This document shows, in pieces, positions 4,956-42,345 of a stretch of 63,197 nucleotides of DNA. Source of the stretch: an uncultured Candidatus Peribacteria bacterium (GTDB taxonomy: Bacteria > Patescibacteriota > Gracilibacteria > Peribacterales > Peribacteraceae); the NCBI GenBank assembly GCA_964558895.1, contig CAZLFU010000001.1, forward strand, positions 1 to 63,197, given 5' to 3'. Under the pieces are notes generated by a model. It had not been told where the DNA came from and did not search any database. It was given only the letters and a program-made list of their open reading frames with translations. The position numbers were made by a program, and so were the translations under genes. Positions within the stretch are counted from its first letter, which is position 1. Every line of letters begins with the position of its first letter.

Positions 4956-5167
4956 AAAGTGGGGAGAATTTTGTATTTTGAATCAAGTGCCTCTATTTCA
5001 GTCGTCCATTTCTGCATATCAAAACTCTCATCGTGATCGAGTGTCACATTCCTTGTCTCAATATCGACATTAACGTTTTTGATAGCAGAAAATTCACTGC
5101 TTACATCTTTAATGAGAGCTGCACACGAAGCGCAGTGAATGCCGGGAATAGAAACGGTTGTTTGCAT
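4952..5167 (-). CDS. copZ: Heavy-metal-associated (HMA) copper chaperone
   Basis: '[11 protein letters not shown]' MxCxxC-type motif; 71 aa; 4-nt overlap with copA. Confidence 0.8.
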
Positions 5168-5187
5168 GGAGAAGTAAAGGAAAAGAA

Positions 5188-5457
5188 TTAACGACGAGAG
5201 AGACCGACAACATTCAGTACTTCATTGATGAAGGCCTCCTTGTCTGATGGAGAGGATAACTTCTTTGCTGCACACGTATGCAGATGGCTTTCGAGAACAG
5301 CTGATTGGATATGCTTGATGTGTCCCTGCATAGCGAGAGCGAGTTCAAGGATCTCTGCACAGTATGCATCTTCCTCGACCTGCTTTCGCAGTTTCACGGT
5401 CAGGCCTTCCAGCCGTTTAATCGCATCGAGTGTTTTTTTCTTGGCATCATCTCTCAT
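5188..5457 (-). CDS. csoR: CsoR-family copper-sensing repressor
   Basis: 'LKRLEGLTVKLRKQVEEDAYCAEILELALAMQGHI...LESHLHTC' (DUF156/CsoR Cys-His-Cys pattern). Start moved to the internal ATG at 5457; the track's N-terminal 42 aa read through the promoter region. Confidence 0.85.
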   Translation of the reverse strand: MRDDAKKKTLDAIKRLEGLTVKLRKQVEEDAYCAEILELALAMQGHIKHIQSAVLESHLHTCAAKKLSSPSDKEAFINEVLNVVGLSRR

Positions 5458-5473
5458 GATTGGAGGGGTAGGG

Positions 5474-5496
5474 GGTAGGGGTACTATATCCCTACC
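5474..5496 (-). promoter_or_regulatory. Candidate CsoR operator (7-9-7 inverted repeat)
   Basis: GGTAGGG-gtactatat-CCCTACC lies 17-39 nt upstream of the csoR ATG. It is a GC-rich pseudo-palindrome of the TACCC...GGGTA type known for CsoR operators. Confidence 0.45.
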
Positions 5497-5519
5497 ACTT
5501 CTAATGTCAAAGTAAGTGC

Positions 5520-5666
5520 TTAGAACTTGCCAATGAAAAAGCCGACGATCACGCCGACGAGTCCCATGGTGACTGCAAACCAAGGATTATTTACAGATGC
5601 ATTGGAAGCAGAATGCTTTTGCACAGGAGATTCGTCGGGCGAGTCTTGCCATTTGAGTTGAGCCAT
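5520..5666 (-). CDS. Possible small membrane protein (48 aa, C-terminal TM helix)
   Basis: Internal ATG at 5666, just after the stop of the upstream gene. C-terminal 'WFAVTMGLVGVIVGFFIGKF'. No family recognised. Confidence 0.3.
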   Translation of the reverse strand: MAQLKWQDSPDESPVQKHSASNASVNNPWFAVTMGLVGVIVGFFIGKF

Positions 5667-5680
5667 AAAAAAGAGAGAAG

Positions 5681-7048
5681 TTAGATCACGGTAAAGGAAC
5701 CTCGCACCATGCCCATGGAGCACATGAAGGCGAGTGTGCCGCGCTGCGGCGCAGTGAATTCAATAATATTTTCACCACTACGAAGTGGCTTAGAGATATT
5801 TAATGAGGGAATGGTGAGGATACTTGTACAGCCGTAGGCCTCTGTTCCATCAATCTTCCAACGGACTGGCACACCCGCTTTTATGGTGAGATTGCTTGGC
5901 TCGTAGTATCCGGCTTCTACCCTCATCGATACCTCCTGGACATCGCCGACCGTTGTCGGTGCAGGCGCGTTGCCTTGTTGATTGCTCGTGGCAAACACGT
6001 GAGACAGGTCAATACCTGTAAGTGCAAATCCGCTATGCAAATTGAAGAGTGCCAAGAGCAGTACGAGCGAACCAGAAAAGCGCAGGAATAACCGAGAGAA
6101 GTTGCCTGTAGCAGTTGAAGATATTGCACTGATTCCAATGAGAGACGGCAGTGTACCTAGGGCGAAAACGAACATGGTCATGGCTCCTGTAATAAAACTT
6201 CCCGAAGCCAAAGCAACAAGTTGTAAAGATTGTGTGAACCCACAGGGGAGGAAAAACGTGAAAGCACCAAGCACTAAAGGCGCTGCAGGATGGTCGCTCT
6301 CCGAGAGATTAGCGATCCAGCGTGAGAGTTTCTTTGGCGGTCTTAGCGGAAAGCTACCCTTTGGAATGACTTCAAGGATAGAGAGGGCAAGGTAGAGCAT
6401 GATCAGAGCCACGGCGATATTCAAGTAGCCCGTCATGCGTGTACTTAGCGTGATGGATTGCCCAAGAGTACCTACAAGCCCACCAAGGACGAAATACGAA
6501 GCTAGACGACCAATATTGAAGTGCAGAAGGGGTTGAAATTTCTGCCAAGGTGTCTCTGCCTGATGCAGTTCGTTATGTTTTGCGGCTAGTGCAAGTAGCA
6601 GGCCTCCTGTGACTGCAAGACAACTACTTGTGCCTGCGACTAGACCGATCAAAAGGACACCTCCAAGCGATAGAGCGCCAGAAGTAGATGGTGCAAGCGA
6701 AACAAGATCGAAAGCTTGAAGCAGTTTGTAGCCTGCAAAAATAATGAGAAGTGCAACACCAATTTCCATCCATTTCCTCTTATCGGGCGAGAGCGTAGTG
6801 ATGGACGGCGCATTTTCATCAATGATCATATAGCCAGCCTTTTCTATTGCGGCGGTAATGCGCTCAGCACTCGGGAGCTGGTCTGATTTGGCTGTGATAC
6901 GGGCAATTCCAGTTCTATGGCTGATGTCCACGTCTTTGATGCCTGGAATAGCTTTGAGCTTTCTTTCAAGCAGCAGCTCGCAACTGGCGCACGTCATTCC
7001 GCCTATACAGACTGTGGCATACCGTTCTTTTGGAGTATTTTCTGACAT
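5681..7048 (-). CDS. Fusion protein: HMA domain + polytopic DsbD_2/TauE-like membrane domain + C-terminal cupredoxin-like domain
   Basis: 'GGMTCASCELLLERKL' HMA motif; about 6-7 hydrophobic helices; C-terminal beta-rich domain ending 'LAFMCSMGMVRGSFTV'. Confidence 0.7.
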   Translation of the reverse strand: MSENTPKERYATVCIGGMTCASCELLLERKLKAIPGIKDVDISHRTGIARITAKSDQLPSAERITAAIEKAGYMIIDENAPSITTLSPDKRKWMEIGVALLIIFAGYKLLQAFDLVSLAPSTSGALSLGGVLLIGLVAGTSSCLAVTGGLLLALAAKHNELHQAETPWQKFQPLLHFNIGRLASYFVLGGLVGTLGQSITLSTRMTGYLNIAVALIMLYLALSILEVIPKGSFPLRPPKKLSRWIANLSESDHPAAPLVLGAFTFFLPCGFTQSLQLVALASGSFITGAMTMFVFALGTLPSLIGISAISSTATGNFSRLFLRFSGSLVLLLALFNLHSGFALTGIDLSHVFATSNQQGNAPAPTTVGDVQEVSMRVEAGYYEPSNLTIKAGVPVRWKIDGTEAYGCTSILTIPSLNISKPLRSGENIIEFTAPQRGTLAFMCSMGMVRGSFTVI

Positions 7049-7107: not shown

Positions 7108-7491
7108 CTACTGTCTAAGGACTATGGTTCTAATTCCTGTTTCAGGCGGTGGTCCCTCTGCAGTGAATTGCCAAGGGGGTTGATTAAGAATCGACTCAGG
7201 TAGTGTAACCAGCAAAACACTCGAAACTACAGGGGTTCGTATTTCAATAGTCATGCTTGATGACACCGATGTTTCTGATTTATGAGCAGACAAGCAATGT
7301 CCTGCATCACATGATGTCTTCTTTTCGGATTCATGCTCTTTATGGGGACAATCGTCACAATCTTCGTGCATCGAACTCACGTTTTGCATTGACAGTTCTA
7401 CTGGCATAGCATTTGCGATGGGCATCGTGCAGAAGCTACCGATGACAGCGTGAAGTCCAAAAGCCAGTGCAATCAGTTTTTTCTTGAACAT
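7108..7491 (-). CDS. Secreted Cys/His-rich protein (possible metal binding)
   Basis: Signal peptide 'MFKKKLIALAFGLHAVIGSFCTMPIANA'. 'HEDCDDCPHKEHESEKKTSCDAGHCLSAH'. Last gene of the copper cluster. Confidence 0.5.
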   Translation of the reverse strand: MFKKKLIALAFGLHAVIGSFCTMPIANAMPVELSMQNVSSMHEDCDDCPHKEHESEKKTSCDAGHCLSAHKSETSVSSSMTIEIRTPVVSSVLLVTLPESILNQPPWQFTAEGPPPETGIRTIVLRQ

Positions 7492-7651
7492 TTCACAGTG
7501 ATTATAGCGTATATTCGGAAATAATGGAGATATTGCTTTCGATGGTTTCGAGCCTCGTAATTTCAGATCAAAATTGGGAGATCAAATGGAAGAAACCCTT
7601 TGATGTAGTGGCAAAAACTACTAAAGCCAAGATGGGTAAACCGAAGTCTGA

Positions 7652-7805
7652 AATTGGCTCCGAACATTGAACCAAGCGAGAACCGAAATTAAGGACAATT
7701 GGGAAAGATTAGAAACAGCCTTTTCTTTGCCGCACAGAGCCGTAGCTTGATTGTTCTCCGATCCTGTTTTTTACAAAATGACACAAACGTGTCATGGTGA
7801 AGGCG
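7652..7805 (+). repeat. att-like module copy 1 (orphan 31-codon tail + hairpin)
   Basis: TGG at 7655 through TGA at 7748-7750 encodes WLRTLNQARTEIKDNWERLETAFSLPHRAVA*. Hairpin ATGACAC/GTGTCAT at 7778-7795. An in-frame TGA lies two codons upstream, so there is no gene body. Confidence 0.8.
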
Positions 7806-7849
7806 TGCTGGAATAATCTTCCATCCATTGCACACTAAATTTACCCTTT

Positions 7850-8272
7850 CTATTTCGCGTCAAAATCAATCATCCATTCAATGCCATATTTGTCTCTAAA
7901 CATTCCAAAATAGGAACCCCAAGGACTGTCAGCCATAGGCATTTCTATTGTTCCACCTGCTGAAAGTCCGTTAAAGAATTTGTCTGCTTCTTCTTTGCTT
8001 TCTGCACTGATTGAAATTTTACTTCTGTTTTCATTTTCGTTTACCTTCCCCAAAATTTCTGGAATGTCATTTGCTATTAAGATGTTTTTGCCGATAGGCA
8101 AAGCAATCCGCATTATTTTATTTTCCTCATTTTCTGCGACCGGAAATTCGGGGCTTGCTATGTCTTTGAAACGTATAATTTTTGCGAACTCTCCACCAAA
8201 TACTGATTTATAAAATGTAAATGCTTCTTCTGCATTTCCGTTGAAGTTAATCCAAGGATTGATAACTACCAT
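7850..8272 (-). CDS. VOC/glyoxalase-fold protein (PhnB-like)
   Basis: 'INPWINFNGNAEEAFTFYKSVFGG...MPMADSPWGSYFGMFRDKYGIEWMI' is typical of the PhnB-like family. Start set at ATG 8272 (the track start is GTG). Confidence 0.7.
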   Translation of the reverse strand: MVVINPWINFNGNAEEAFTFYKSVFGGEFAKIIRFKDIASPEFPVAENEENKIMRIALPIGKNILIANDIPEILGKVNENENRSKISISAESKEEADKFFNGLSAGGTIEMPMADSPWGSYFGMFRDKYGIEWMIDFDAK

Positions 8273-8326
8273 AATTTTTATGGTAAATAACACCTAACCA
8301 AAGTGCAAGTTATTTATGGTCGTACA

Positions 8327-8480
8327 AATTGGCTCCGAACGCTGTACGAAGCGAGAACCGAAATCAAGGAGACATGGCAAAGACTCGAAAGTGCATTTTC
8401 ACTGCTACACAGCGCCGCAGTTTAGCGTTTTAGCGATATCGAATTTCAAGAAATGACACGAAAGTGCCATGGTGCAGACA
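8327..8480 (+). repeat. att-like module copy 2
   Basis: TGG at 8330 through TAG at 8423-8425 encodes WLRTLYEARTEIKETWQRLESAFSLLHSAAV*. Hairpin ATGACAC/GTGCCAT at 8453-8470. Confidence 0.8.
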
Positions 8481-8596
8481 TATCTTTTTTAGGGATGTAT
8501 CTATCTTTATATGCTTTCTATTTGATCGCTGAAGCCGTTATAGCAATGTGAAACACATTATTTACAGTAGAAATTAATGTGGTAATATACACAATA

Positions 8597-9046
8597 ATGA
8601 AAACGCCGAATAACATCTTTGTATACGGCTCAATGCTATCTCCTGAAGTTGTTAAGGCGATAACAGGCGAGGAGGGTATTTCTGCAAGCGACGCATGTAT
8701 TAAGAACTTTGCGCGTAGAAAGCTTAAGGACAGAGATTATCCAGCAATAATTCAACACGAAGGCAGTATTGTAATTGGGAAAATTTTGCATGAGGTTCGT
8801 GAAGACTTAGTGCAGCTAATAGATACGTTTGAGGGTGATGAATATGTAAAAAAGGAAGTAAGAGCTGTACTCAGCGATGACTCTGAATTAAGTGCATTTG
8901 CTTATGTATGGAATGGTGACCCTGCAGATGTTCGTAATGAAGATTGGGATTTTGCGCATTTTGAATCACACAAATTACGCACTTTTCTTTTGCAAACTCT
9001 GGATATCATGTCGGGCAATCCATTAAAAGAACATTACAATGATTGA
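8597..9046 (+). CDS. Gamma-glutamylcyclotransferase-like (AIG2/GGACT family) protein
   Basis: 'NIFVYGSMLSPEVV', 'YPAII...GSIVIGKIL', 'LIDTFEGDEYVKKEV' match the AIG2-like fold pattern. Start at ATG 8597. Confidence 0.55.
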   Translation: MKTPNNIFVYGSMLSPEVVKAITGEEGISASDACIKNFARRKLKDRDYPAIIQHEGSIVIGKILHEVREDLVQLIDTFEGDEYVKKEVRAVLSDDSELSAFAYVWNGDPADVRNEDWDFAHFESHKLRTFLLQTLDIMSGNPLKEHYND

Positions 9047-10082
9047 CTATTCTTTTTACAGAAAAATAGGCACTGATGGAATTAAAGACGTTGCAGATAG
9101 TGGACTGCATCCAGATGATCTCTTGCATCAATTAGAAGCCTCTAGATCTGAACTTCCTTATGTCGATCAAATTGAAACAACAAATAACTGTAATTTGAGA
9201 TGTGTCATGTGTCCTCGCACAAAGCATATGACCAGAGCCATAATTAACAGTATGCGAATGGATTTGTTTTGCTGCATTATTGATGAAATTGAAGAATACG
9301 AACAAGAAAAGAAACATCTAGGTATTAGCGAAGCTGATTACAAGCTTAATGGCCCCTTCAATTTACAGTGGCAAGGAAGTGATCATGATATTTTTGATTT
9401 GAGATTGCATCACTTTGGAGCGCCACTTTTAGATCCAGAAATTATCAACAGAGTTCAGTATGTAACTGACAATGCATCTTTTGGCACGCAGTTATCTGAA
9501 ACAGTGATTAATTTAAAGATAGAAAAGGTTAGAGAACTTTTTCACGCAAATCTGCGTAGATTGATTATTGCAATCGATGCCACTAATGCCGATGAATTCA
9601 TTCAAATCAGAGGACGAAAAATTGATTTTGTAAAAGAAATGCAACGTGTTCAGGAAATTGTAGAATTAAAGAAAAAAGAAGGGGCATCAACAAAAATTGA
9701 TATTCAAGTAATCGAATTATCAAAGACAGATGCAGATGAATTCAGCAAGATTTGGGGGGCACATGAAAATGTTGGCATTCTTCGAAAGTCATTCTTCCCT
9801 TATCCTGATATTGATCGATCCTTGGGAAAGCAAAGTGAATCGGATTTTAGTGGTAGTTGTGACTTTCCTTATACGTCAATTACAGTGATGGCTGATGGCA
9901 GGGTTGTTCCGTGTTGTGCCGACTACAATGGCGAAGTGGTACTGGGAGATTTGAATACGCAAAATTTGTATGAAGTATGGAATGGAGATCCATTTAAATT
10001 ATTTAGAGAGAGATTTGTAAAATCTCTATTTTCTCCAAACGACTTATGTAAACGATGCGGCCACTATCCATTTAAGGATTAG
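9039..10082 (+). CDS. Radical SAM enzyme with a C-terminal SPASM-like Cys cluster
   Basis: 'ETTNNCNLRCVMCPR' (CxxxCxxC). C-terminal 'CDFPYTSITVMADGRVVPCCADYNG...CKRCGH'. Confidence 0.7.
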   Translation: MIDYSFYRKIGTDGIKDVADSGLHPDDLLHQLEASRSELPYVDQIETTNNCNLRCVMCPRTKHMTRAIINSMRMDLFCCIIDEIEEYEQEKKHLGISEADYKLNGPFNLQWQGSDHDIFDLRLHHFGAPLLDPEIINRVQYVTDNASFGTQLSETVINLKIEKVRELFHANLRRLIIAIDATNADEFIQIRGRKIDFVKEMQRVQEIVELKKKEGASTKIDIQVIELSKTDADEFSKIWGAHENVGILRKSFFPYPDIDRSLGKQSESDFSGSCDFPYTSITVMADGRVVPCCADYNGEVVLGDLNTQNLYEVWNGDPFKLFRERFVKSLFSPNDLCKRCGHYPFKD

Positions 10083-11109
10083 CTTCTTCAAAAAAATCAG
10101 ACAATATTGTTTTAAAAGTAAAATTGCGGATATTTTCTCTTATTTGATTTAGCGCTTCCGACGACTCATCTTTCGAATCGTCCAGATGTTCCTTGATCAT
10201 CTGCACAGCCTCCTCATTTGAACGGTATAAAAAATTTCTTGGGAAAAAATAGGGATAGCATTGATCGTCAGGCAGTACGGGGTGGCAACCAGAGAGAACA
10301 GATTTCATAACCGAATACCCAAATAGTTCCTGCTTTGCGCAGCTCAAAACGACTTTTGACGAGGCAAGCGTCAAGGCATGCTGTTCATCATTTTCACCAT
10401 GCAGTAATTCGATGTTATCCATTGCAGATAAGGCATCATAGTATTTGCTACCTTTCGCCTGATCCTGTTTTTGAGGAACTGGAATAGCAATTCTGGCTTC
10501 AGGTATACCTTTTGCTATATCAATCAAATCAACTATGCCCTTATCCTCATTTAATCGATGGGGGAATATAACGTCATATTTCTTGTCAGGTGAAGTCGCA
10601 GGTGAAAATGCATCCATGCCATGCGGCATAAACTGCGTCTTTTTCTTTAGTGGTTCTGGCAACTGCGACTCTATATATCGAGACGGCGTGTATATGCTGT
10701 CATACGTATTAGCCCAAGCTGTTTCGTAGCTGCTCAGCCAATCAAATGAATACAGATCTCCACTTAGGAACGAACCACCTGATAAAATAGACCCATATTT
10801 GCATCGGAGATCCCTTTGAAGATGTGCATACCTCAGTATGTCCAAACCTGGATTAAAGAAATCCAAGAATAGTACTTTTGCTAACCCTTTGCGTCTGGTG
10901 AGTTCTGAAATTACTGCGATTTGTCCTTCAATATAACTCTCATCATCCAACAGCTCTCCTTTTAGGTTATTTTCTAGGGGCTCAATTTGCCCTGTTATCT
11001 CAATGGGAATATTCATTTTCCCTGCGCTCACTACGAGAGCCTGTGTCATCTCATCAAACGATGTGCCTTTATAGTGCGGGGGAATTGCAATGACGTTTGA
11101 TGCTTCCAT
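10072..11109 (-). CDS. Glycosyltransferase-like protein (GT-B fold, GT4-like)
   Basis: C-terminal 'QELFGYSVMKSVLSGCHPVLPD' resembles the E(x7)E/GT1-GT4 motif; 345 aa. Overlaps the convergent radical SAM gene by 11 nt. Confidence 0.45.
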   Translation of the reverse strand: MEASNVIAIPPHYKGTSFDEMTQALVVSAGKMNIPIEITGQIEPLENNLKGELLDDESYIEGQIAVISELTRRKGLAKVLFLDFFNPGLDILRYAHLQRDLRCKYGSILSGGSFLSGDLYSFDWLSSYETAWANTYDSIYTPSRYIESQLPEPLKKKTQFMPHGMDAFSPATSPDKKYDVIFPHRLNEDKGIVDLIDIAKGIPEARIAIPVPQKQDQAKGSKYYDALSAMDNIELLHGENDEQHALTLASSKVVLSCAKQELFGYSVMKSVLSGCHPVLPDDQCYPYFFPRNFLYRSNEEAVQMIKEHLDDSKDESSEALNQIRENIRNFTFKTILSDFFEEANP

Positions 11110-11117
11110 ATGAAATA

Positions 11118-12173
11118 TTATGAAGAGAATCTAACTATGTCGCACTTATCCTTGTCTGGATGCATGCCGATAACTACATCATTCTGAGTGAGATCGCTGA
11201 CTGCATAATCTTCAAAATACTCCGAATGATCTTTATCTTTTTCATTCATCATTAGCGTAGGAATGCTTGCCGCTGTTAAGCGGATATTTGCTTCCAAGAT
11301 GCTTATGGTTGATCCATTTAACATGAAATCGATTCCAAAAAATCCTTCATAGTTTTCAATGAGAGGATGCAGTTTTTCAATACCAGACCTCAATTGCTCT
11401 TTTACTTCTGGCGTAATCGAATCCAAGCTCATCATTTCAGAGCCAGCGAAATGCTTGTTATCGATTATTTTTTGCTGTGAATACCCAAAAATGACAGTCC
11501 CTAGGGACTTACTTTTGACGACTTGTATGCTGGATGGAATACCTTGAACAGCATCTTCTACAAACCAGAGACTGAAACCATCATTGAAAATTTTATCCTT
11601 TATTTCTTCAACAGTACTAAACTCAGCAGATCGATGAAGAGTGTATCCGCCTGAACCGAATTGTCTTTTAAAATATACGTCACGTTTCAAGTAACTTTCA
11701 TCTACGCCTTCTGCATCAATTTTCCTCCATATTGGAGTCTGATCGCCCAACAGTTCTTTTTGAATTATCTTGTCGTTATTTTTTTTGAAATCGGAATATG
11801 AGTAATTAATGTTGAGATTATGATCAGTTGCAAAACGATCAGCATCTGGATGCGGAATGGCTACCCATAGCTCACTAACATTTTCTGGGATTTTTGCTGG
11901 TGACAATCGTTGGTAAACAGAAGAAGTTGCCTTCTCCGCCATGGGAATTTCCAAGAGAGAATTCGAAGAGCTATACTGGAGAGCACCTGAGAGCTCATTC
12001 GTTGCTACATGTTTGTTAGTGAGAACCCACGGCATGAGGTTTTCGTATTTCCACATGTCTACTATTTCCAAATCCAGTGATTCCCCAATCGCTCTGAAAT
12101 CAACCGAATATAAAGCGTGATCTCTTTGAAGAAAATCAATTTCCGAAGGCTTCAGAGCTTTGAAGGTAATCAT
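11118..12173 (-). CDS. ATP-grasp family ligase
   Basis: 'KRQFGSGGYTLH', 'FFGIDFMLNGSTISILEANIRLTAASIP' (ATP-grasp 'E-x-N-x-R' region). Confidence 0.55.
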   Translation of the reverse strand: MITFKALKPSEIDFLQRDHALYSVDFRAIGESLDLEIVDMWKYENLMPWVLTNKHVATNELSGALQYSSSNSLLEIPMAEKATSSVYQRLSPAKIPENVSELWVAIPHPDADRFATDHNLNINYSYSDFKKNNDKIIQKELLGDQTPIWRKIDAEGVDESYLKRDVYFKRQFGSGGYTLHRSAEFSTVEEIKDKIFNDGFSLWFVEDAVQGIPSSIQVVKSKSLGTVIFGYSQQKIIDNKHFAGSEMMSLDSITPEVKEQLRSGIEKLHPLIENYEGFFGIDFMLNGSTISILEANIRLTAASIPTLMMNEKDKDHSEYFEDYAVSDLTQNDVVIGMHPDKDKCDIVRFSS

Positions 12174-13231
12174 AAGTAATGTGTGTAAATAAGATGAGGA
12201 TCAATATAAGATTCCAGCTTACAGATATCAGGCTCTTCGGTCGAGAAGATGTATAGATTGGATGAGGAGCTATATTGTAAAGCCGAGGGATCAATTGAAT
12301 TGCTTTGCAGTAATTCGGATGCCCTACCTCTTTCAATGAAATTATCGGGCAATTCATATTGGCTAAAATTCTGACGTACTTCTTTTAGAGATATTCCACA
12401 TTCAGAAAGCATCTGATGTAAATTGCGCAAATTGCGCCCCATCATGGTAGGGTTAAGAATTACGTAAAATTCCTTTTCTTCCCTATCTTTCTTTAGGAAT
12501 TTCAACCCTGATGTGATGAAGGATAATGAGCCGTGTAGGGTATAGGGAGGATCTGTAATGAATGTATCTACCGTATCTACAATTGCTTCTTGTCCTAGTT
12601 CGGTTACATCACCTTCAATAATTCTCAAAGATGAATCTGCATTCTTTAAATAGCTGATGATTCTTGGATCTTTTTCAAAAACAACAACCTTCGCCCACGG
12701 CTCCCTGCCGAGTTCTGCACTCAGTAGATCGTCATCGCCAATGACAGCGACATTTAAATGTTCAACATTTGGATATCTTTCTTTTAGAAGAGCAACTCTC
12801 CGTATTCTGGAGGCAATATCACATGGAAACTGATTATACTCGGACATAGGTTCAATAGTTACTTGATGTTGGTCGTTTGCATTCAATATTTCGCCTCTTG
12901 TTCTAAACAATCGCTGGATTTGACCAGATGTATTAATGCTTATCAATTTCAGATTAAGAGACACTTCTAAAATTGGGCCAAGATTGTCGAAATCAGCGGC
13001 ACTCCTTTTTACAAAATCATCTAAATTTTCTGCATTCATCAGTATCTCCACTAATTGTGCGAATGCCAATCGACCTAGCCTGTTGTTACTCCTCCATGAT
13101 TCCACATTCCTTTGGTCGCCCCCTCTAAGATCGAGAGGAATGCTTTGCAAATAATCCTCATAAGCATGTTCAATTTCTGGCATAAAACGCAATGCTTCAT
13201 TGGGGCCAGATGATTGATTCTGAGTTTCCAT
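12170..13231 (-). CDS. BpsA/DUF43-like aminopropyltransferase (branched-polyamine synthase family)
   Basis: 'VAVIGDDDLLSAELG', 'VVVFEKDPRII', 'FITDPPYTLHGSLSF'. 4-nt overlap with the ATP-grasp gene. Directly downstream of the AdoMet decarboxylase. Confidence 0.55.
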   Translation of the reverse strand: METQNQSSGPNEALRFMPEIEHAYEDYLQSIPLDLRGGDQRNVESWRSNNRLGRLAFAQLVEILMNAENLDDFVKRSAADFDNLGPILEVSLNLKLISINTSGQIQRLFRTRGEILNANDQHQVTIEPMSEYNQFPCDIASRIRRVALLKERYPNVEHLNVAVIGDDDLLSAELGREPWAKVVVFEKDPRIISYLKNADSSLRIIEGDVTELGQEAIVDTVDTFITDPPYTLHGSLSFITSGLKFLKKDREEKEFYVILNPTMMGRNLRNLHQMLSECGISLKEVRQNFSQYELPDNFIERGRASELLQSNSIDPSALQYSSSSNLYIFSTEEPDICKLESYIDPHLIYTHYL

Positions 13232-13243
13232 AAAATTGAGGGA

Positions 13244-13645
13244 TTATCGCATTTTTCTTTCAAGTACACTTTTCACAATATTGTTGGATCTGAAGTGCGT
13301 ACTGATTTCATCAAACAAGGCATGAGCAGCTTCGCTGTTATCACGAGTATGATTGCAAACAAACAAATTAACGCTTACATAGCCTTCCATAGGCCATGTA
13401 TGTACGGCGAAGTGAGATTCTGCCAACGCAACGACTCCTGTAAAACCAACATCAAATTCATGATAAACAGACTGCAGCTCAGTGAGGTTATATTTATTGA
13501 GCAAATCTGATATTAGTTTTTTGAACTCAGTCATTTTAATACTTAAGAGGTATTCACAATCGCAGTCTTTGAGATCCCCAACTATCTCAATACCAGCAAT
13601 ATCTTGAGAATTGCCTGTGGGAAGCTCTGCGTCAGACATTGACAT
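13244..13645 (-). CDS. speH: S-adenosylmethionine decarboxylase proenzyme (pyruvoyl type, SpeH-like)
   Basis: 'VVALAESHFAVHTWPMEGYVSVNLFVC' contains the E-S self-cleavage site and HTWPE-type motif; 133 aa. Confidence 0.8.
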   Translation of the reverse strand: MSMSDAELPTGNSQDIAGIEIVGDLKDCDCEYLLSIKMTEFKKLISDLLNKYNLTELQSVYHEFDVGFTGVVALAESHFAVHTWPMEGYVSVNLFVCNHTRDNSEAAHALFDEISTHFRSNNIVKSVLERKMR

Positions 13646-13679
13646 ATTATTAAAAGATTGTTATAAATATGTCAAGTTT

Positions 13680-14012
13680 ATGGATAAATCCGATATTGAA
13701 GGCATATTAGAACGGGCCTATGAGTTTATTGAGGCCAATTCGGTCAGGGGTCATTCCACAGTGGATGATGTCATGATGGTCTCTCCTCATACTCATTCGC
13801 TCGATTCTGTACTGGCCTATATCTATCAGCAAAGAGCGGAAGTGGGTGATCAAATCACTCAGTTGCTCGAAACACGAATATTGGATCTGCGTAATGAAAT
13901 AGACATATTAGCCTTTTTATACCAAGCAGACGAGGATTCTTTGGCACGTGCTCATAAAGCCAAGCAGGATATAGCAGAAACTATTAGAGCGCATTTCCAC
14001 AAAACGACATGA
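13680..14012 (+). CDS. Hypothetical helical protein (110 aa)
   Basis: ATG at 13680 avoids overlap with speH. ATGA overlap with the next gene. No family recognised. Confidence 0.4.
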   Translation: MDKSDIEGILERAYEFIEANSVRGHSTVDDVMMVSPHTHSLDSVLAYIYQQRAEVGDQITQLLETRILDLRNEIDILAFLYQADEDSLARAHKAKQDIAETIRAHFHKTT

Positions 14013-14833
14013 ATTTACCAAGCCCTTTCGGTACGGATGAACCTCGTAAGGCAAGCGACTGTCGTCCAGGTGGAGATGATTTGGCGAATATCCAAAAAGA
14101 TCGCTCGGTTTTTCGAGCAGAGGAGGGTTCTCTGCGAGTATCGGGAGACAAGGTGTTCTATACAATTCAAGGGGAGGGCGTATCTATGGGTTCACCTGCA
14201 TCTTTTTTGCGTTTGCATAATTGCAATTTGAAATGTTCTTGGTGCGATGCATGGTACACATGGAATACGGATAGCGTAGAATTTTGGACGGAGAGCGTAC
14301 TGTGGACTATCGAAGAAACACGGAGAAATATTGAATCAAGTTGGGGATGCGAGAATGTTGCGATTTCCAAAAGATTGGTTGTGACTGGCGGCGAGCCATT
14401 GATTCAGCAGCAGGGAATTGAATCATTGTTAGGTGATATGAAAGATTGGTCTGTTGAAATAGAAACAAATGGCACTATTCTTCCCTCTGACTATCTTCTC
14501 AATCGTTGCCAATTTAATTGTTCCCCTAAACTAAGTAATTCTGGGAATCAGGTTCAGCGTCGCATCAGGGCAGATGTATTGAAAGTATTGAATCAGGCTA
14601 ATACGAATTTTAAATTTGTAGTACGCGACGAAGATGATGTTGAGGAAGTCGATACTGATTTTATCCAACCCCATTCTCTTGATGCGAATAAGGTTATTCT
14701 AATGCCCGAAGGCGTGACGATGGGGGAAGTGGCTGAGAATGCAAGGAAGGTAGTTGAGCTAACCAAAAAGAAGGGCTATCGCCTGCTTAATCGTTTGCAC
14801 TGCGATATATGGGGAGCAAAGCGTGCGGTATAG
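14009..14833 (+). CDS. QueE-like radical SAM enzyme (7-carboxy-7-deazaguanine synthase family) with a ~45-aa N-terminal extension
   Basis: 'FYTIQGEGVSMGSPASFLRLHNCNLKCSWCDAWYTW' is the QueE-type CxxxCxxC context. 'VVTGGEPLIQ'. Confidence 0.7.
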   Translation: MNLPSPFGTDEPRKASDCRPGGDDLANIQKDRSVFRAEEGSLRVSGDKVFYTIQGEGVSMGSPASFLRLHNCNLKCSWCDAWYTWNTDSVEFWTESVLWTIEETRRNIESSWGCENVAISKRLVVTGGEPLIQQQGIESLLGDMKDWSVEIETNGTILPSDYLLNRCQFNCSPKLSNSGNQVQRRIRADVLKVLNQANTNFKFVVRDEDDVEEVDTDFIQPHSLDANKVILMPEGVTMGEVAENARKVVELTKKKGYRLLNRLHCDIWGAKRAV

Positions 14834-14872
14834 GAAATGCAGTGTGTGACGTATTTGAATAAATATTTTATT

Positions 14873-15027
14873 CATTGGCTCCGAACCCTGTACCACGCGA
14901 GAACCGAGATTAAGGATACTTGGGAAAGACTTGAAACAGCGTTTTCCTTGCTGCACAGGGCGGCTGTTTGATTGTTTGTATTTTGCGTTTCTCGAACAAA
15001 TGACACATGTGTGCCATGGCGCAGCCG
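14873..15027 (+). repeat. att-like module copy 3
   Basis: TGG at 14876 through TGA at 14969-14971 encodes WLRTLYHARTEIKDTWERLETAFSLLHRAAV*. Hairpin ATGACAC/GTGCCAT at 15000-15017. Confidence 0.8.
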
Positions 15028-15558: not shown

Positions 15559-15780
15559 ATGAAGAAAAAGAGCCAAAAACCAGACATGATCATCAAGACG
15601 GGCAGAAGTGAAATACATCTCTATTCACACTATGAGAAGGACCCAGAGAAGGCGCGTCAGGCGAAAGAGGAATTCGACAGAGGACTCCGGTACATAGCCA
15701 AGCAGGGCGGTTGGCTAGATGCATTGGAAGAAAGGGATGCTGCTCTCGCAAGGCTTATGCAGTTATTGCCTCTCGATTAG
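15559..15780 (+). CDS. Hypothetical small protein (73 aa)
   Basis: ORF only; follows the membrane protein gene after 18 nt. Confidence 0.35.
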   Translation: MKKKSQKPDMIIKTGRSEIHLYSHYEKDPEKARQAKEEFDRGLRYIAKQGGWLDALEERDAALARLMQLLPLD

Positions 15781-16790
15781 CGACTGCGTTTTCTCTCCAA
15801 GAACAGGCTCTTTGATGGAACCCAGTCACGTGCGAGCTCATCAGCCTTTTGCAGCCAGCGATCAATTCTATCTTCAGGGGCTACGGATTCACCCCAGTAT
15901 TCAACGAACACTGCATCTTCGAGGCGTGCTGCTGCTTCCATCATTTCATTTTCAATGAGCTTCAGTGCGCGTTCAATATAGATTCCACCCTCATCGTCAT
16001 TATCAGGATTCGCCACGCTTCCAGCGGAAAACAGATCTCTTGCCTGATGGCAAAGAACGCCATGATAGGTAAGCAAATAGAGAACAGCATCATCGTACTT
16101 GTCCCTTGATCTGCCGGACTGCACGATCTTTGGACACAGCAATGCAGCTTCCGCACGCATTTTTGTTTTTTCTTCCATGGACAGTTTCGTGTAGAGGCGT
16201 GCTTGCACAGGAAGGGTGTGTCCAGGGTCGTCTGGTGAATCTTCCAACCACCACATGCGCTCACCTGGCTTTAAGCGACCACGCGCATAGGCGCGAATGT
16301 GGCGCATCTTGTCTTCCATCGGCAAGTCGCGGAATTCATCGTATGAAATTCCCATTTGCTCGAACAATGATTTCTCCGCTGCTATTTCCACTTCAAAGCG
16401 AGGAACGTGAGAAGTGCGCACATGCATAACGCATTTGTCGTATTCGTCCCATCGTACTTCGGGAGTTCCACCCATTTTGCCAAACACGAGGAAGATCTTT
16501 TTCACTTCCTTGATGCGGTTTGTTTCCAGCACGCTATTCGCAACGCTTCGCCAGGTGTCGCTCGTTGTGAATTTTACTTCAATGCCGAAATCGCCGATTG
16601 CTACATCTGGAAACGCTTGCGGATGCGGGTCAAAATCAATAGCCACTTTCATTCCCTTCATTATTTCCTGCGCGACTTCCCTAACTCGATCCTCAAATTC
16701 TTTGGAGGACTGAAATGGTTTTTGCCTAGCCTCTGCGGTCAATGTCTCGCAGATGGCTTTCAGTATTTTCTCAAAATCTTGCTGGGTCAT
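15777..16790 (-). CDS. Probable type II restriction endonuclease (PD-(D/E)xK)
   Basis: 'FPDVAIGDFGIEVKFT' gives a D...E-x-K catalytic pattern. Immediately downstream of a C5 methyltransferase on the same strand. Confidence 0.5.
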   Translation of the reverse strand: MTQQDFEKILKAICETLTAEARQKPFQSSKEFEDRVREVAQEIMKGMKVAIDFDPHPQAFPDVAIGDFGIEVKFTTSDTWRSVANSVLETNRIKEVKKIFLVFGKMGGTPEVRWDEYDKCVMHVRTSHVPRFEVEIAAEKSLFEQMGISYDEFRDLPMEDKMRHIRAYARGRLKPGERMWWLEDSPDDPGHTLPVQARLYTKLSMEEKTKMRAEAALLCPKIVQSGRSRDKYDDAVLYLLTYHGVLCHQARDLFSAGSVANPDNDDEGGIYIERALKLIENEMMEAAARLEDAVFVEYWGESVAPEDRIDRWLQKADELARDWVPSKSLFLERKRSR

Positions 16791-16824: not shown

Positions 16825-17841
16825 CTATTTCTGCTTATCGAGGCAATCCTGTACCGCTTTTGCCAAATGCCAAGCAAAGACCGGCGCTACTGCATTGCCA
16901 ACCTGTCTTTCAGTTTCCCTTAACTTTGAATCAAAAATAAAGTCGTCTGGGAATGACTGGAAACGCGCTGCTTCTCTCATAGAGATGCGACGGCGCAGTT
17001 TGTAGTGGAACTGAATGTTGCCATGGCACTCTGCACGAATCGTATAGCCAGGACGTTCGGCAATTAGTTTCCTATTTCCCTGTTCGGAGCTTTTGTTAGC
17101 GCGACTCCAAACATGATTAAGATTTTCATTTTCAGGCATTGATTCCAGATCGCATATCGCCTCACGAGCAGTTATATGCTTATCCTTGGTTAAAGGTGCA
17201 ACAGGAGGATTGAAGTCAGCCACCTCTGGGCGAGTTCCTACAATAATCACCCTTTCGCGCGTCTGTGGAACGCCATAATCAGCCGCGTTGTAGAGCTTGA
17301 ACGAAATGTTGTAACCAAGAGCTTTAAAATCAGCAAGAACACGCTTTAAAGAATCTTCATTGTGCTTCATCAGCAATCCTTTCACATTTTCAGCCAAGAA
17401 AATCTTTGGCTGCACTCTTGATACCACTTCAACCATTGCCCGATAGAGACCGCTGCGCTTACCGTCTACACCGGCTCCTTTGCCGTTTACAGATATGTCC
17501 TGACAAGGAAAGCCCCCGATAACCACATCTGCCGTTTGGGGCATTTGATCCATTACTTGCCAAATATCTCCAGTCACGATGTCGGCCCCAACATTCTTTT
17601 TGTAGGTCCTGCAAGCAGCTTCATTAAGTTCATTCGCCCAAATGATTTCAAATGGCAAACGTTCATATTGCTTACCAAGAGACTTAAAATCTCCTCTGAA
17701 ACCCAAATCCATCCCGCCACAACCAGAGAATAGAGAAATAACCGAAAAAGTTCTTACTGGCTGCTGCATTCCAAGCTCAATGGCACGTTTAGTTATTGTT
17801 CCGATTTTTATTTCCTTTGGAGGTGCGATTGTTGGATTCAT
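16825..17841 (-). CDS. DNA (cytosine-5)-methyltransferase
   Basis: 'LFSGCGGMDLGF' (motif I), 'GGFPCQDIS' (motif IV), 'ENV', 'QTRER', 'GNAVAP'. Confidence 0.9.
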   Translation of the reverse strand: MNPTIAPPKEIKIGTITKRAIELGMQQPVRTFSVISLFSGCGGMDLGFRGDFKSLGKQYERLPFEIIWANELNEAACRTYKKNVGADIVTGDIWQVMDQMPQTADVVIGGFPCQDISVNGKGAGVDGKRSGLYRAMVEVVSRVQPKIFLAENVKGLLMKHNEDSLKRVLADFKALGYNISFKLYNAADYGVPQTRERVIIVGTRPEVADFNPPVAPLTKDKHITAREAICDLESMPENENLNHVWSRANKSSEQGNRKLIAERPGYTIRAECHGNIQFHYKLRRRISMREAARFQSFPDDFIFDSKLRETERQVGNAVAPVFAWHLAKAVQDCLDKQK

Positions 17842-18442: not shown

Positions 18443-20236
18443 CTACTTCCAATGCTTACCAAACAATGGATGTTTGGGTGTAAGGACTATTACTGCCTCA
18501 TCTTCGATTTTACCTCCTGTGAGCTGTTCGGCTCCTGTGCCAAAATCCAAATCCTTAATTGTTCCCTCTTGATTCAAAGTAACTATGTATTGGAATTTTA
18601 AACCTTCACCTTCTTTTTTCATTAAAAAATTATAAAGGTGAACGAAATGTGCCTTATCAATCCCATCAAAAATTCCATCGTGAATTAAAAAGCGAGGACA
18701 ATGTATATTTTTTTCAATTGCATGGAATAAGACTGCAAGATCATAAATCAATGTGCGCCCCTTATTCTTACCGTATGAAAGATTTGATGGAATTATTACA
18801 TCCATATTAACCTTGGAATCCTTGTTCTTATTTGCAGAAAATACAAAATTTGCCTCATCTTTATTCTCTGCATAAATAGCATCGTGAACAAAGAAAAATA
18901 TCCTTCTAAAATCTTTTAACTGTTCTTTTATCTCAATACAAAATTGTTCGATCTCTGCATAGAGTGTAATGCTCGCTTTCTCCCTCTCTGTTACTTCTCT
19001 GCTTAAATCCTGATAAGTTTTTAGCTTTCCTTCAAGATCACTCAACCTCTCTCTTTTTTTACTTAAATCTAAATATGCTTCTGACAAATCCTTAATAGCC
19101 TCTTTGGCAGAGAGAAATTCGAAGAGTTGAGCACGTTTCTTTTCAAGCTCGGAAATCCGTTTTTCTTTTGTAGAAATTGTCGCTGTTAATTCAGTAACTT
19201 CTGATTCTAAAAATTCTTTCCTTGATTGTGCGATCTTCTTTCTGAATTTAATCGCCTCTTCCAAAGTTTTCTTGATATTATTTGCTAGCAGCTCATTCAA
19301 TTCCTTATACAGATTCTTTATCTTTGTGGGACGTATATCCTCATCGTCATAAGAAAAGCTTTCCTGATAGGCTTCAATTTGTTTGCGATCAGTAAAATTC
19401 TGATGCCAAAGCTCCTTAATCTCTTCGGTTAATTTATTCGATTGTGCTTCTACATCGGCATACTGACTAGCTAATTCAAACTTCCGTATGTGCTGCTCAA
19501 AGACAGAGATATTAGCTTGTAATTTATCCAGTTCACTTTCAGCCTGTCCGATGTCTTTCAAGTTATAAGTATCCTCCACGAGAGATTTAACTTCTCTTAA
19601 TGCCGGTTTCTTTGCTTTTATTTCCGAAATGATTTCGTAATTTTTCTGAAACAACCTATTGCTGATTCCCAGCAAAAATAAATGCAATGGTATTAGTTCA
19701 ATTTCTTTCGCTCTATCATGCAAATAGTTGATCGGATCTTTAAAGTTAGTTTTCGTATTAGACGATTGCGCTTTAATAAAAAAAGGCATTAATTTCCTAA
19801 ACCACGTATTTGAATATTTCCCTTCATAAGTCTCATTCTTAAAAATCAGATCACAAAGAATTTTGCTCAATTCATGATCGGTAGAAGTATGCCTGTATTC
19901 ATTTAGAGTTCCCGTCTTTTTGCCAAACATGATTTCTTTATTTGGATTCTGGAAACCTCTTTTTATAACATAAAGATCGTCCCCAACATAAAACTCAAGA
20001 ACAATCTTGTATTCTTCCAAATCATTATTCGCCTTTGCAGATTTAATATGACTAGTCTCACCAGACAGAAGGCAATAATCAATTAGGTTTAATAGCAAAG
20101 ATTTTCCTAAACCATTCAATGACTTCCTGCTGTCTCCATCTTCACCCTTTTTTGCATATACGAAATTGAATCCAGGCTTGAATTCAACGGCTTCAAATAA
20201 ACCTGCCGGCTCTGAATATAATTTATGCAGGAACAT
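18443..20236 (-). CDS. SMC-like ABC ATPase with long coiled coil (DUF2326 / ABC-three-component-system type, tentative)
   Basis: Walker A 'LNGLGKSLLLNLI'; ~250-aa coiled-coil-like Lys/Glu-rich middle; C-terminal 'RFLIHDGIFDGID' (Walker B/D-loop-like). Confidence 0.55.
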   Translation of the reverse strand: MFLHKLYSEPAGLFEAVEFKPGFNFVYAKKGEDGDSRKSLNGLGKSLLLNLIDYCLLSGETSHIKSAKANNDLEEYKIVLEFYVGDDLYVIKRGFQNPNKEIMFGKKTGTLNEYRHTSTDHELSKILCDLIFKNETYEGKYSNTWFRKLMPFFIKAQSSNTKTNFKDPINYLHDRAKEIELIPLHLFLLGISNRLFQKNYEIISEIKAKKPALREVKSLVEDTYNLKDIGQAESELDKLQANISVFEQHIRKFELASQYADVEAQSNKLTEEIKELWHQNFTDRKQIEAYQESFSYDDEDIRPTKIKNLYKELNELLANNIKKTLEEAIKFRKKIAQSRKEFLESEVTELTATISTKEKRISELEKKRAQLFEFLSAKEAIKDLSEAYLDLSKKRERLSDLEGKLKTYQDLSREVTEREKASITLYAEIEQFCIEIKEQLKDFRRIFFFVHDAIYAENKDEANFVFSANKNKDSKVNMDVIIPSNLSYGKNKGRTLIYDLAVLFHAIEKNIHCPRFLIHDGIFDGIDKAHFVHLYNFLMKKEGEGLKFQYIVTLNQEGTIKDLDFGTGAEQLTGGKIEDEAVIVLTPKHPLFGKHWK

Positions 20237-37095: not shown

Positions 37096-37171
37096 ACGGC
37101 TTTAGTAAGCCATTTTATAATGATTGACTAAATTTGCTAATATTTAAAAAAAGTGTATTGTAATTATTCCT

Positions 37172-42321: not shown

Positions 42322-42345
42322 AAAGACACTAGGTTTCAATATAAA

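Follow-up and report, generated by a model that had tools for sequence, protein, structure and literature searches.

Eight genes of a compact cassette

The window, by which the whole 63,197-nucleotide (nt) stretch of contig CAZLFU010000001.1 (assembly GCA_964558895.1) from an uncultured Candidatus Peribacteria bacterium is meant here, carries at positions 8597-14833 a cassette of eight genes, g1 to g8 (Table 1). They encode a protein like gamma-glutamylamine cyclotransferase (GGACT), two radical S-adenosylmethionine (SAM) enzymes of which one is QueE-like, a glycosyltransferase (GT), an ATP-grasp ligase, a putative aminopropyltransferase resembling BpsA, an S-adenosylmethionine decarboxylase (AdoMetDC), and a small protein. 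The listing of open reading frames (ORFs) places all eight exactly where a first-pass annotation had put them, and the families proposed there hold in profile searches of Pfam, NCBIfam and PHROGs and in matches to the PDB. Within each transcription unit the genes overlap or are separated by at most 12 nt (g1 and g2 share 8 nt), and the convergent overlap is 11 nt.

The motifs expected of these families are intact. The translation of g1, which also matches the phage family phrog_2520, contains YGS and FEG motifs (VYGSML and FEGDEY), in which the YG(S/T)L loop and catalytic Glu of the family are recognisable. In g6 and most of its orthologs, AESH...HTWP (AESHFAVHTWP in the window) covers the Glu-Ser self-processing site and the catalytic motif; its score against TIGR03330, 69.3 bits, lies just under the equivalog cutoff of 75.65, and its substrate assignment leans on the fusions with aminopropyltransferase described below. 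A CX3CX2C cluster motif is present in both radical SAM proteins (g2 and g8), and g8 combines it with QGEG (FYTIQGEG...CNLKCSWC) in an alignment with the E. coli-type QueE 6nhl. The same protein matches the QueE structures 6nhl, 5tgs and 4njg (6e-13 to 1e-7). Because g8 is 33-40% identical to the QueEs of phages such as phiSM and CAjan (39.7% to that of Cellulophaga phage phiSM), and the phiSM gene sits in a cluster of FolE, DpdA (queuine-tRNA-ribosyltransferase-like), QueC, QueD and QueE, it is treated here as a real, if divergent, 7-carboxy-7-deazaguanine (CDG) synthase, a function predicted from its sequence.

Profile searches with the GT and the ATP-grasp protein returned generic GT4 and ATP-grasp matches only. 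The AlphaFold model of g3 (pLDDT 93.5) has a GT-B fold, and its nearest folds are BshA, SenB, GlgM, MshA, PglA and BGluT, at TM-scores of merely 0.6-0.7; BshA, SenB, MshA, PglA and BGluT, a tetrahydrobiopterin glucosyltransferase, are GT4 enzymes with small acceptors. PDB sequence searches with this GT, with the second glycosyltransferase domain (GT2) found at related loci, and with the separate GT2 protein gave nothing usable. The model of g4 (pLDDT 93.9) is a complete three-domain ligase, closest in fold to the uncharacterised S. aureus protein SAOUHSC_02373 and then to PurD, PurK and L-amino-acid ligases, and its sequence weakly matches MfnD tyramine-glutamate ligase.

Two genes are conserved in close strains only. 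The PDB protein that g2 matches best is BtrN (9.5e-11), and the alignment spans residues 270-342 only, a 73-residue auxiliary-cluster domain. Orthology of g2 with radical SAM/SPASM genes near the related loci L016, L071, L077, L078 and L095 was considered and rejected, the similarity being generic (E >= 0.001); a QueE match at L078 is probably the N-terminus of such a radical SAM/SPASM gene. For g7, no match was found in Pfam, NCBIfam, PHROGs or PADLOC, and the idea that it is a small protein specific to Peribacteria was dropped for want of similarity. Both g2, with its twitch-type domain, and g7 should be regarded as lineage-specific, strain-level additions until shown otherwise.

Table 1. 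Features of the window (positions in nt; L145 is a contig of a second strain)
Feature	Position	Strand	Assignment	Match or remark
g1	8597-9046	+	GGACT/AIG2-like gamma-glutamyl(amine) cyclotransferase	PF06094 8.7e-19, 68.7 bits vs cutoff 22.8
g2	9039-10082	+	Radical SAM, C-terminal twitch/SPASM auxiliary-cluster domain	PF13186 1.1e-15; CNLRCVMC at residues 51-58
g3	10072-11109	-	GT-B (GT4-like) glycosyltransferase, core member	PF00534 Glycos_transf_1 4.4e-6, just above cutoff
g4	11118-12173	-	ATP-grasp carboxylate-amine ligase, core member	PF02655 ATP-grasp_3 6.8e-9
g5	12170-13231	-	Predicted BpsA-like aminopropyltransferase dependent on decarboxylated SAM, core member	PF01861 BpsA_C 6.7e-20, 71.8 bits vs cutoff 27
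g6	13244-13645	-	Class-1 SpeH-type pyruvoyl AdoMet decarboxylase, core member	PF02675 2.2e-20
g7	13680-14012	+	110-amino-acid protein, no family	4-nt overlap with start of g8
g8	14009-14833	+	QueE, divergent phage-like type	phrog_2076 5e-56
Promoter-like site before g1-g2	8561-8588	+		TTTACA-16-TAATAT with extended TG; consensus match only
Promoter-like site for g6-g5-g4-g3 operon	13646-13675	-		TTGACA-18-AATAAT, 11/12; best site of the region; consensus match only
Junction repeat, copy 1	7651-7802			Beyond the neighbouring single-gene glyoxalase-family cassette
Junction repeat, copy 2	8326-8477		Left cassette boundary	L145 similarity begins at 8451
Junction repeat, copy 3	14872-15023		Right cassette boundary	L145 similarity ends at 14874
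Glyoxalase-family gene	7850-8293	-	Glyoxalase/bleomycin-resistance family	Pfam Glyoxalase; sole gene of the neighbouring cassette
Type II restriction endonuclease	15777-16790			REase_II 2.6e-153; restriction-modification pair after the cassette
C5 methyltransferase	16825-17841			Partner in the same pair
PDC-M68B/LmuB-like gene	18443-20236		DUF2326	Follows the restriction-modification pair
Large serine recombinase	23970-25502	+		3' end inside tRNA-Asn(GUU)
tRNA-Asn(GUU)	25488-25562	-
tmRNA	36648-37095

A module shared by distant lineages and its 7-deazaguanine neighbours

Scans of species-representative genomes and of metagenomes of the Joint Genome Institute (JGI), with a search pattern for BpsA-like genes that contains a DPPY motif, yielded 66 loci with a BpsA-like ortholog, which dereplicate at 85% identity to 43 lineages; 77 loci with more distant BpsA homologs form a control set. 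Six of the eight cassette families recur together in distant lineages, and five of them constitute a core module, namely the BpsA-like aminopropyltransferase, AdoMetDC, the ATP-grasp ligase, the GT-B enzyme (GT1) and the GGACT-like protein, which is found in at least 43 lineages, mostly of the candidate phyla radiation (CPR). The gene order BpsA-like, ATP-grasp, (AdoMetDC), GT1 recurs, with GT2 optionally attached to the BpsA-like protein and ATP-grasp optionally fused to AdoMetDC. This order is seen within the CPR in Saccharibacteria, Peribacteria, Paceibacterota, Komeilibacteria and Gracilibacteria, and outside it in Acetivibrio, Gammaproteobacteria, Bacteroidetes and Longimicrobium metagenome-assembled genomes (MAGs) and in a marine organism present in many Tara samples. 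GT1 is encoded in 37 of the 43 lineages, ATP-grasp in 33 and the GT2 domain in 31, and the lineages that lack one of them are largely represented by truncated contigs. The GT1 family (73 matches) and the ATP-grasp family (39 matches) are both essentially confined to the context of this module. Since the order of the BpsA-like, ATP-grasp and GT trio, whose co-conservation the first-pass annotation had proposed to check, is kept in dozens of loci and two of its families occur essentially nowhere else, chance juxtaposition fails as an explanation. As for the eight genes taken as one unit, they do move as a block in close strains, but the module shared across phyla excludes g2 and g7.

The BpsA-like protein has just 54 relatives in a collection of 5.8 billion sequences, several of them fused to an AdoMet_dc or GT2 domain; a look-up of its exact sequence found no existing record. 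An exhaustive profile search of 1.84 billion representatives (E <=1e-30) yielded 62 clusters (50% identity). GT2 fusions of ~630 amino acids make up about half of these, and one is an AdoMetDC-GT2-BpsA fusion of 727 amino acids. Together the fusions seen are AdoMetDC-BpsA, GT2-BpsA, ATP-grasp-AdoMetDC and AdoMetDC-GT2-BpsA, and they tie the enzymes to one pathway. A profile scan of IMG/VR found no BpsA-like ortholog in phages, and a phage origin of the module was rejected on this ground.

The family profile matches the BpsA structure 5xnc (4.1e-20) and 2qm3 (2.3e-20). With the BpsA/AdoMetDC system of branched-chain polyamine synthesis (Thermococcus, Thermus; EC 2.5.1.128) it has in common the catalytic C-terminal Rossmann domain PF01861, the G[DE]DD motif and an adjacent or fused AdoMetDC. 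All of 30 sequences compared keep G165, D167 and D168 of this motif, and GDDD or GEDD is found in all but one of the 66 ortholog loci; in BpsA the GDDD motif positions the aminopropyl group of decarboxylated SAM (dcSAM) (PMC12979288). In Tk-BpsA, a flexible C-terminal acidic cluster (E339, D342, D343, E344 and E345) acts as the aminopropyl carrier (PMC12979288), whereas no such cluster was found in the last 40 residues of 30 BpsA-like members, in which any seven consecutive residues include at most 0-4 acidic ones (2 in the typical member) and the alignment shows no conserved acidic column. These proteins have instead an invariant YSSSS (residues 321-324 of the window protein) and a conserved IY(E)HY at the C-terminal end (349-352). 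Moreover, no alignment with BpsA is obtained over their first ~105 residues, about half of them are fused to GT2, and their hosts are mesophilic CPR and other bacteria. Because the acidic carrier cluster is gone and YSSSS and IY(E)HY are in place, the family to which g5 belongs is, judged by sequence, BpsA-like and not BpsA. Its acceptor is probably not a polyamine. The DPPY motif was considered as a sign of a nucleobase-amine substrate and rejected, because the distant BpsA homologs also carry DPPYT and the loci were selected with that motif.

The ATP-grasp ligase and the GGACT-like protein behave as a pair. GGACT-like genes are found in 19 of 34 lineages with ATP-grasp and in none of 11 without it (13 of 21 against 0 of 7 when a flank of at least 2 kb is available). 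Orthologs of g1 itself are present in L006 and L009, and remote relatives adjoin the module elsewhere. One group of these is a small family without a Pfam match (A4), encoded after GT1 in 12 lineages, with a YGTL...(F/Y)EG signature in which YG and EG are invariant; hhalign relates it to g1 with a probability of 84% (E 7e-6). Another group of loci encodes a PF06094 protein at the same position after GT1, and PF06094 proteins are relatives of g1 in L017, L019, L090, L091 and L012. A second architecture has neither ATP-grasp nor GGACT and consists of GT1, an amidohydrolase-like protein (a weak match of 24 bits, below cutoff), GT2-BpsA, AdoMetDC and GNAT. Such a swap of an acylating and deacylating pair for another one is as expected if an amine is transiently N-acylated in the pathway. 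The earlier proposal that dcSAM-dependent aminopropyl transfer is combined with an amide made by ATP-grasp and removed by the GGCT-like protein is thus backed by the fusions and by this co-occurrence.

A comparable logic operates in butirosin synthesis, in which BtrG removes a protective gamma-glutamyl group (bioRxiv 10.1101/2025.01.15.633182). The cassette is like the BtrJ/BtrG/BtrN system in that ATP-grasp is paired with a GGCT-fold enzyme, a GT-B enzyme is present and BtrN is the best PDB match of g2, but it has no 2-deoxystreptamine genes, the likeness to BtrN is confined to the auxiliary-cluster domain, and the ATP-grasp family of the module is just distantly related to any characterised ligase. 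Carrier-protein (BtrI), decarboxylase (BtrK) and aminotransferase families were not recurrent in the BLAST clustering of the neighbourhoods, which included no dedicated search for BtrI or BtrK.

The QueE-like gene, earlier taken to encode a generic tailoring enzyme, turned out to be the key clue, for the module is repeatedly linked to genes of 7-deazaguanine synthesis or salvage. Such a gene lies in or beside the module in 13 of 43 lineages, against 2 of the 77 control loci, and these two are probably truncated orthologs. At an assumed chance rate of 2%, the binomial P(>=9/43) is 1.6e-7, for lineages that are phylogenetically related and not fully independent. A Vut_1/YhhQ transporter, scoring 113.5 bits against the TIGR00697 "queuosine precursor transporter" equivalog (cutoff 51), adjoins the module in nine lineages. 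At least four arrangements occur, and both variants of the module are represented; the transporter is encoded upstream on the same strand and abuts or overlaps the next gene, stands divergently with QueF, follows GT1, or follows GNAT in the second architecture. At five loci, which belong to two lineages, the BpsA-like gene is immediately preceded by a QueF-like gene with the CPMTG catalytic cysteine and the ELKSLKFY motif, and in L004 both the Vut_1 transporter and a QueF-like gene stand directly upstream of it. In the window and in Peribacteria, QueE and GGACT accompany the module (~43% identity), orthologs of g8 being located beside it in L006 and L009.

The linkage extends to a whole synthetic gene set in L012 (Acetivibrio MAG, CAYXPB010000088.1), where ten genes that share a strand and are never more than 61 nt apart encode GT2-BpsA, ATP-grasp, GT1, an HGD-D/double-cubane-type protein and its activase, QueD, QueE, FolE, QueC and GGACT in this order. 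The QueE of this operon is above the equivalog cutoff (313 bits against 260). The HGD-D/double-cubane-cluster-type protein and the BcrAD/BadFG-type activase are encoded between GT1 and QueD, at 7249-9038, and the operon is without QueF; as a speculation, this ATP-driven low-potential reductase might replace QueF in reduction of the preQ0 nitrile. No further 7-deazaguanine genes were found in the long-contig contexts of L146, L147 and L148; a weak match to an energy-coupling factor (ECF) transporter beside L146 was not confirmed by NCBIfam. Genes for tgt, queA, queG and queH were not seen near the loci.

Several loci show other forms of the module. Tara Oceans contigs (L142-L144, 6121-11080) carry a minimal form of three genes, the 727-amino-acid AdoMetDC-GT2-BpsA fusion, ATP-grasp and GT1, together with a divergent NUDIX gene and flanked by type I restriction-modification (R-M) genes, helix-turn-helix (HTH) genes, an integrase and Cas9-Cas1-Cas2; the GT1 protein of this form is indexed in 97 blocks of the collection. 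L147 (3708-11029) encodes GT2-BpsA and GT1 without ATP-grasp or AdoMetDC, next to a LodA-like protein and an FAD-dependent enzyme, with HipA and E2/ThiF-type genes nearby. A NUDIX hydrolase gene stands within a few kb of the module, at varying positions, in about 12 loci (L006, L007, L008, L019, L065, L069, L070, L073, L077, L087, L090 and L142). NCBIfam gave no specific assignment for these NUDIX proteins; their substrate could be a nucleotide or nucleotide-sugar intermediate, or their recurrence in CPR genomes could be due to chance.

A proposed 7-deazaguanine tailoring pathway and its alternatives

We regard the cassette, with a probability of about 0.5, as a soluble cytoplasmic pathway that works on the free base and yields a product built on 7-deazaguanine; preQ1 or CDG would be aminopropylated, glycosylated and transiently gamma-glutamylated in it. 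The families, the intact motifs, the co-conservation, the fusions and the linkage to 7-deazaguanine genes are observed; every substrate, the order of the steps and the product are what we infer from the gene content, as follows. QueE (g8) would raise the supply of CDG, which QueC and QueF of the host would take to preQ1. AdoMetDC (g6) would make dcSAM, from which g5 may move the aminopropyl group to a primary amine. The likeliest acceptor would be the 7-aminomethyl nitrogen of preQ1, because the linked pathway offers no other primary alkyl amine, and preQ1 is the product of QueF, which is encoded directly before the transferase in some operons. The ATP-grasp ligase (g4) may then acylate one of the amines of this intermediate, the acyl group probably being gamma-glutamyl. 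Next, the GT-B enzyme (g3) would add a sugar and, in most lineages elsewhere, the GT2 domain fused to the aminopropyltransferase would add another. The GGACT-like protein (g1) would then strip the gamma-glutamyl group as 5-oxoproline, in a cycle of protection and deprotection like that of BtrG in butirosin synthesis. In an alternative wiring, the ATP-grasp ligase would join the carboxylate of CDG to an aminopropylated amine, comparable to the amide that roseomycin A carries on CDG.

What the pathway makes could be a metabolite that stays free or a base that is later inserted into tRNA. A more specific and rather doubtful proposal is that N-aminopropyl-preQ1 and its glycosylated form are installed in tRNA (or DNA) as a new queuosine-like hypermodification. 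In many CPR bacteria this would be the standard fate of salvaged preQ0 or preQ1, and in other phyla it would be horizontally mobile. If N-aminopropyl-preQ1 is indeed made, g5 would represent the first aminopropyltransferase with a nucleobase as acceptor. A role in modification of the cell surface, once offered as an option, is disfavoured, because no hydrophobic segment is predicted in any cassette protein, all of them being predicted soluble, and no flippase or polymerase family is recurrent near the loci in BLAST clustering of the neighbourhoods.

Among the closest parallels to the proposed pathway are 7-deazapurine secondary-metabolite clusters (huimycin, dapiramicin, roseomycin A, tubercidin and toyocamycin), which follow the same logic of preQ0/CDG core genes combined with tailoring enzymes. 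In huimycin, a glycosyltransferase (PF13439) acts on a preQ0 derivative; the roseomycin A cluster, whose product has an amide on the CDG carboxylate, contains ATP-grasp; and the tubercidin and roseomycin clusters work from CDG without the preQ0-forming QueC (bioRxiv 10.64898/2026.04.15.718813), as the window may likewise do. Those clusters are actinomycete, whereas here the tailoring module is the core and the deazapurine genes are optional neighbours. Furthermore, AdoMetDC, aminopropyltransferase and GGACT are not reported in the 7-deazapurine clusters, and "polyamine" and "spermidine" are absent from the survey of them (bioRxiv 10.64898/2026.04.15.718813). Full-text literature searches found no paper that joins dcSAM or aminopropyl transfer with 7-deazaguanines and none on the BpsA-like/ATP-grasp/GT module, which is not mentioned in that 2026 survey or in a 2026 BpsA review; papers on YhhQ with CPR bacteria and on echiguanine likewise held no description of it. 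This agrees with the first-pass annotation, which did not recognise the combination as a described pathway, and the chances are about even that the module represents a 7-deazaguanine tailoring pathway with an enzyme combination for which the literature offered no described precedent.

Should this reading hold, 7-deazaguanine metabolism would gain a new branch, in which dcSAM extends a nucleobase; to our knowledge, dcSAM has so far been known only as a building block of polyamines. It would also give a function to a gene set kept by ultra-small CPR bacteria despite extreme genome reduction, and might point to a deazapurine metabolite, or a modification of tRNA or DNA, that is new. Even without the link to deazaguanine, the BpsA-like/ATP-grasp/GT-B/GGACT-like module is a widespread pathway whose product is unassigned. 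The prediction is directly testable, because the module is small (3 to 8 genes), its proteins are predicted soluble, and preQ1 and dcSAM are obtainable.

Several observations weigh against a 7-deazaguanine-based product. Only ~30% of the lineages have an adjoining 7-deazaguanine gene, the counts come from related loci and so are not fully independent, and no such gene lies within 10 kb in the widely sampled Tara locus, L146 or L147; as ~70% of the lineages are without such a gene nearby, the link may be lineage-specific or indirect. The best curated QueE score of g8, 87.2 bits against TIGR03963, is far from the cutoff of 260.1, and the QueF-like proteins are below the NCBIfam equivalog cutoffs. 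By tblastn, QueC, QueD, FolE and QueF were not found in the 63-kb window, so that a pathway starting from its QueE would depend on host genes outside the view. A preQ1 riboswitch is absent, at the Rfam gathering threshold, from the window and eight loci with Que or YhhQ genes. The fold matches of the GT and the ATP-grasp protein do not identify their substrates, and we know of no aminopropyltransferase that accepts a nucleobase.

Some of these points would suit a metabolite that contains no deazapurine, a glycosylated and acylated polyamine or amino sugar made on a diamine or sugar amine, with the Que and YhhQ genes standing nearby for another reason. Its logic would be that of mycothiol and bacillithiol (GT4, deacetylase, ATP-dependent ligase and GNAT) or of aminoglycosides such as butirosin (GT4, BtrN-type radical SAM enzyme, BtrJ and BtrG). 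Indeed, the GT model is nearest to BshA, SenB and MshA, the second architecture with GT1, amidohydrolase-like protein and GNAT resembles MshA/MshB/MshD, BtrN is the top match of g2, ATP-grasp with GGACT parallels BtrJ/BtrG, AdoMetDC with a BpsA-family enzyme alone is a polyamine module, and most lineages have no 7-deazaguanine gene at hand. However, such a metabolite leaves the operonic YhhQ genes in nine lineages and four arrangements, the upstream QueF and the in-line preQ0 operon of L012 unexplained; aminotransferase, carrier-protein, thiol-ligase and cyclitol-synthase families are not recurrent in the BLAST clustering of neighbourhoods; and the similarity to BtrN spans 73 residues only. 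We consider a deazapurine-free product rather unlikely, and ordinary polyamine synthesis by SpeH and an aminopropyltransferase beside unrelated genes barely credible. Although AdoMetDC is also common beside a BpsA-family gene at the distant-homolog loci (31 of 77 controls), simple polyamine synthesis does not account for the order and the fusions with GT2, GT1 and ATP-grasp conserved across phyla, for GT1 and ATP-grasp families essentially confined to this context, for an eight-gene block that moves as a unit, or for the loss of the acidic carrier cluster of true BpsA.

Action on the polymer itself has also to be weighed, whereby preQ1 already present at tRNA position 34 or in DNA would be aminopropylated and then glycosylated, replacing or supplementing queuosine, especially in CPR bacteria. 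On tRNA, this preQ1 amine is the one that QueA alkylates with SAM; in vertebrates a GT-B and a GT-A enzyme, QTMAN and QTGAL, attach sugars to queuosine; and bacterial tRNA-guanine transglycosylase (TGT) tolerates N-substituted preQ1. The module has neighbours in common with the queuosine and preQ0 pathway, namely QueE in the window and in Peribacteria, QueF, the YhhQ-type transporter and the whole preQ0 set in L012, and the flanking YhhQ and QueF salvage genes otherwise serve queuosine in tRNA; the proposed alkyl donor is, by contrast, the aminopropyl group of dcSAM and not the ribosyl group of SAM. Very small CPR genomes keep the module beside housekeeping genes (TsaD, a cysteinyl-tRNA synthetase (CysRS) fragment, ABC-F and sigma-70), and copies outside the CPR sit in R-M and CRISPR islands. 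As to QTMAN and QTGAL, a comparison at the level of fold class gives a match, with a GT-B model here and a GT2 fused to the BpsA-like protein elsewhere; the window has no GT2, its GT has no extra N-terminal Pfam domain, and the closest folds have small-molecule acceptors. Likewise, g8 is closest to the QueEs of the DNA-modifying phages phiSM, CAjan and Seurat, and the cassette lies in an R-M island, but the window has no DpdA/TGT, DpdB/C, QueC or QueD as expected of Dpd or phage systems of 7-deazaguanine DNA modification, the related loci have no DpdA/TGT or DpdB/C, and the module is not found among the phages of IMG/VR. With the phiSM DpdA as query, tblastn (E up to 1) gave no match in the window or ~145 loci, a search with low sensitivity for distant TGTs, and BLAST clustering of the neighbourhoods showed no recurrent TGT or DpdA family. 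In addition, profile searches detected no nucleic-acid-binding domain in the core proteins, relatives of GGACT and ATP-grasp with known function act on small molecules, and the 50 best fold matches of the GT include no enzyme described as glycosylating tRNA or DNA. These points make modification of a base already within tRNA or DNA unlikely. Defence or counter-defence against phages, with a small molecule such as a deazapurine or a polycationic nucleoside analogue blocking phage replication, is more improbable still. The cassette does lie between the glyoxalase cassette and a type II R-M pair with a PDC-M68B/LmuB-like gene, the neighbouring slot in the second strain holds another methyltransferase and helicase system, the Tara organism has the module between type I R-M and Cas9-Cas1-Cas2, junction repeats and recombinases are near, and QueE-like genes are weakly similar to viperin models. 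Location in a variable island is, however, weak evidence, CPR modules stand among housekeeping genes, a relative (L001) carries just a decayed remnant, no PADLOC model matches the other seven proteins, and the pVip match of g8 (1e-6) is generic radical SAM similarity.

The mobile unit and its surroundings

The first-pass annotation placed these genes in a mobile cassette next to defence genes, and both parts of this description are correct: the cassette is a discrete mobile unit in a defence island, because it is low in GC, is bounded by repeats, recurs in a second strain within different flanks, and adjoins R-M genes and a PDC-M68B/LmuB-like gene that follow it directly. Its GC content is 37-40%, against 45-49% in the flanks. 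An 18-kb Logan contig of the second strain, L145, carries the same eight genes with 97.6% nucleotide identity over window positions 8451-14874, beyond which similarity stops. Downstream of the block L145 encodes DUF4238 and DUF8370/8371 proteins, a DEAD/ResIII helicase and an N6/N4 methyltransferase, unlike the window, so the slot corresponding to the R-M genes of the window holds a different set of genes.

The three junction repeats are imperfect direct repeats of ~152 nt with 64-81% identity, and they separate two cassettes. Copies 2 and 3, spaced by 6546 nt, agree at 81% over 96 nt and 80% over 30 nt. L145 has its own copies, of which the shared 3' core has the form AAAnnGCACAAAAGTGCCATGGTGCAG, and at the right boundary it retains just this conserved core. 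The repeats are not obvious attC hairpins of the integron kind: their consensus fold is weak (-19 kcal/mol) and forms no hairpin over the whole length. The nearby recombinase is a serine recombinase and not IntI, three repeats bound the two cassettes, and a bidirectional integron cassette of eight genes would be atypical.

Another integration junction probably lies where the large serine recombinase gene overlaps tRNA-Asn(GUU). Queuosine is borne by four tRNAs, and tRNA-Asn(GUU) is among them, which is maybe a coincidence. L001 (JGI Ga0557774_000352) has the same copper-resistance genes as window positions 2628-7048 and encodes at 8643-10414 an N-terminally truncated BpsA-like protein (residues 114-353) and ATP-grasp only, ~68% identical, without GT1, AdoMetDC or QueE, and thus looks like a decaying remnant of the cassette. 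Farther downstream in the window, the last 300 nt of the tmRNA gene (36781-37080) are repeated exactly at 44100-44399, 7.3 kb away, a duplication of the kind that islands usually leave on integration into ssrA; the island here would span about 37081-44399.

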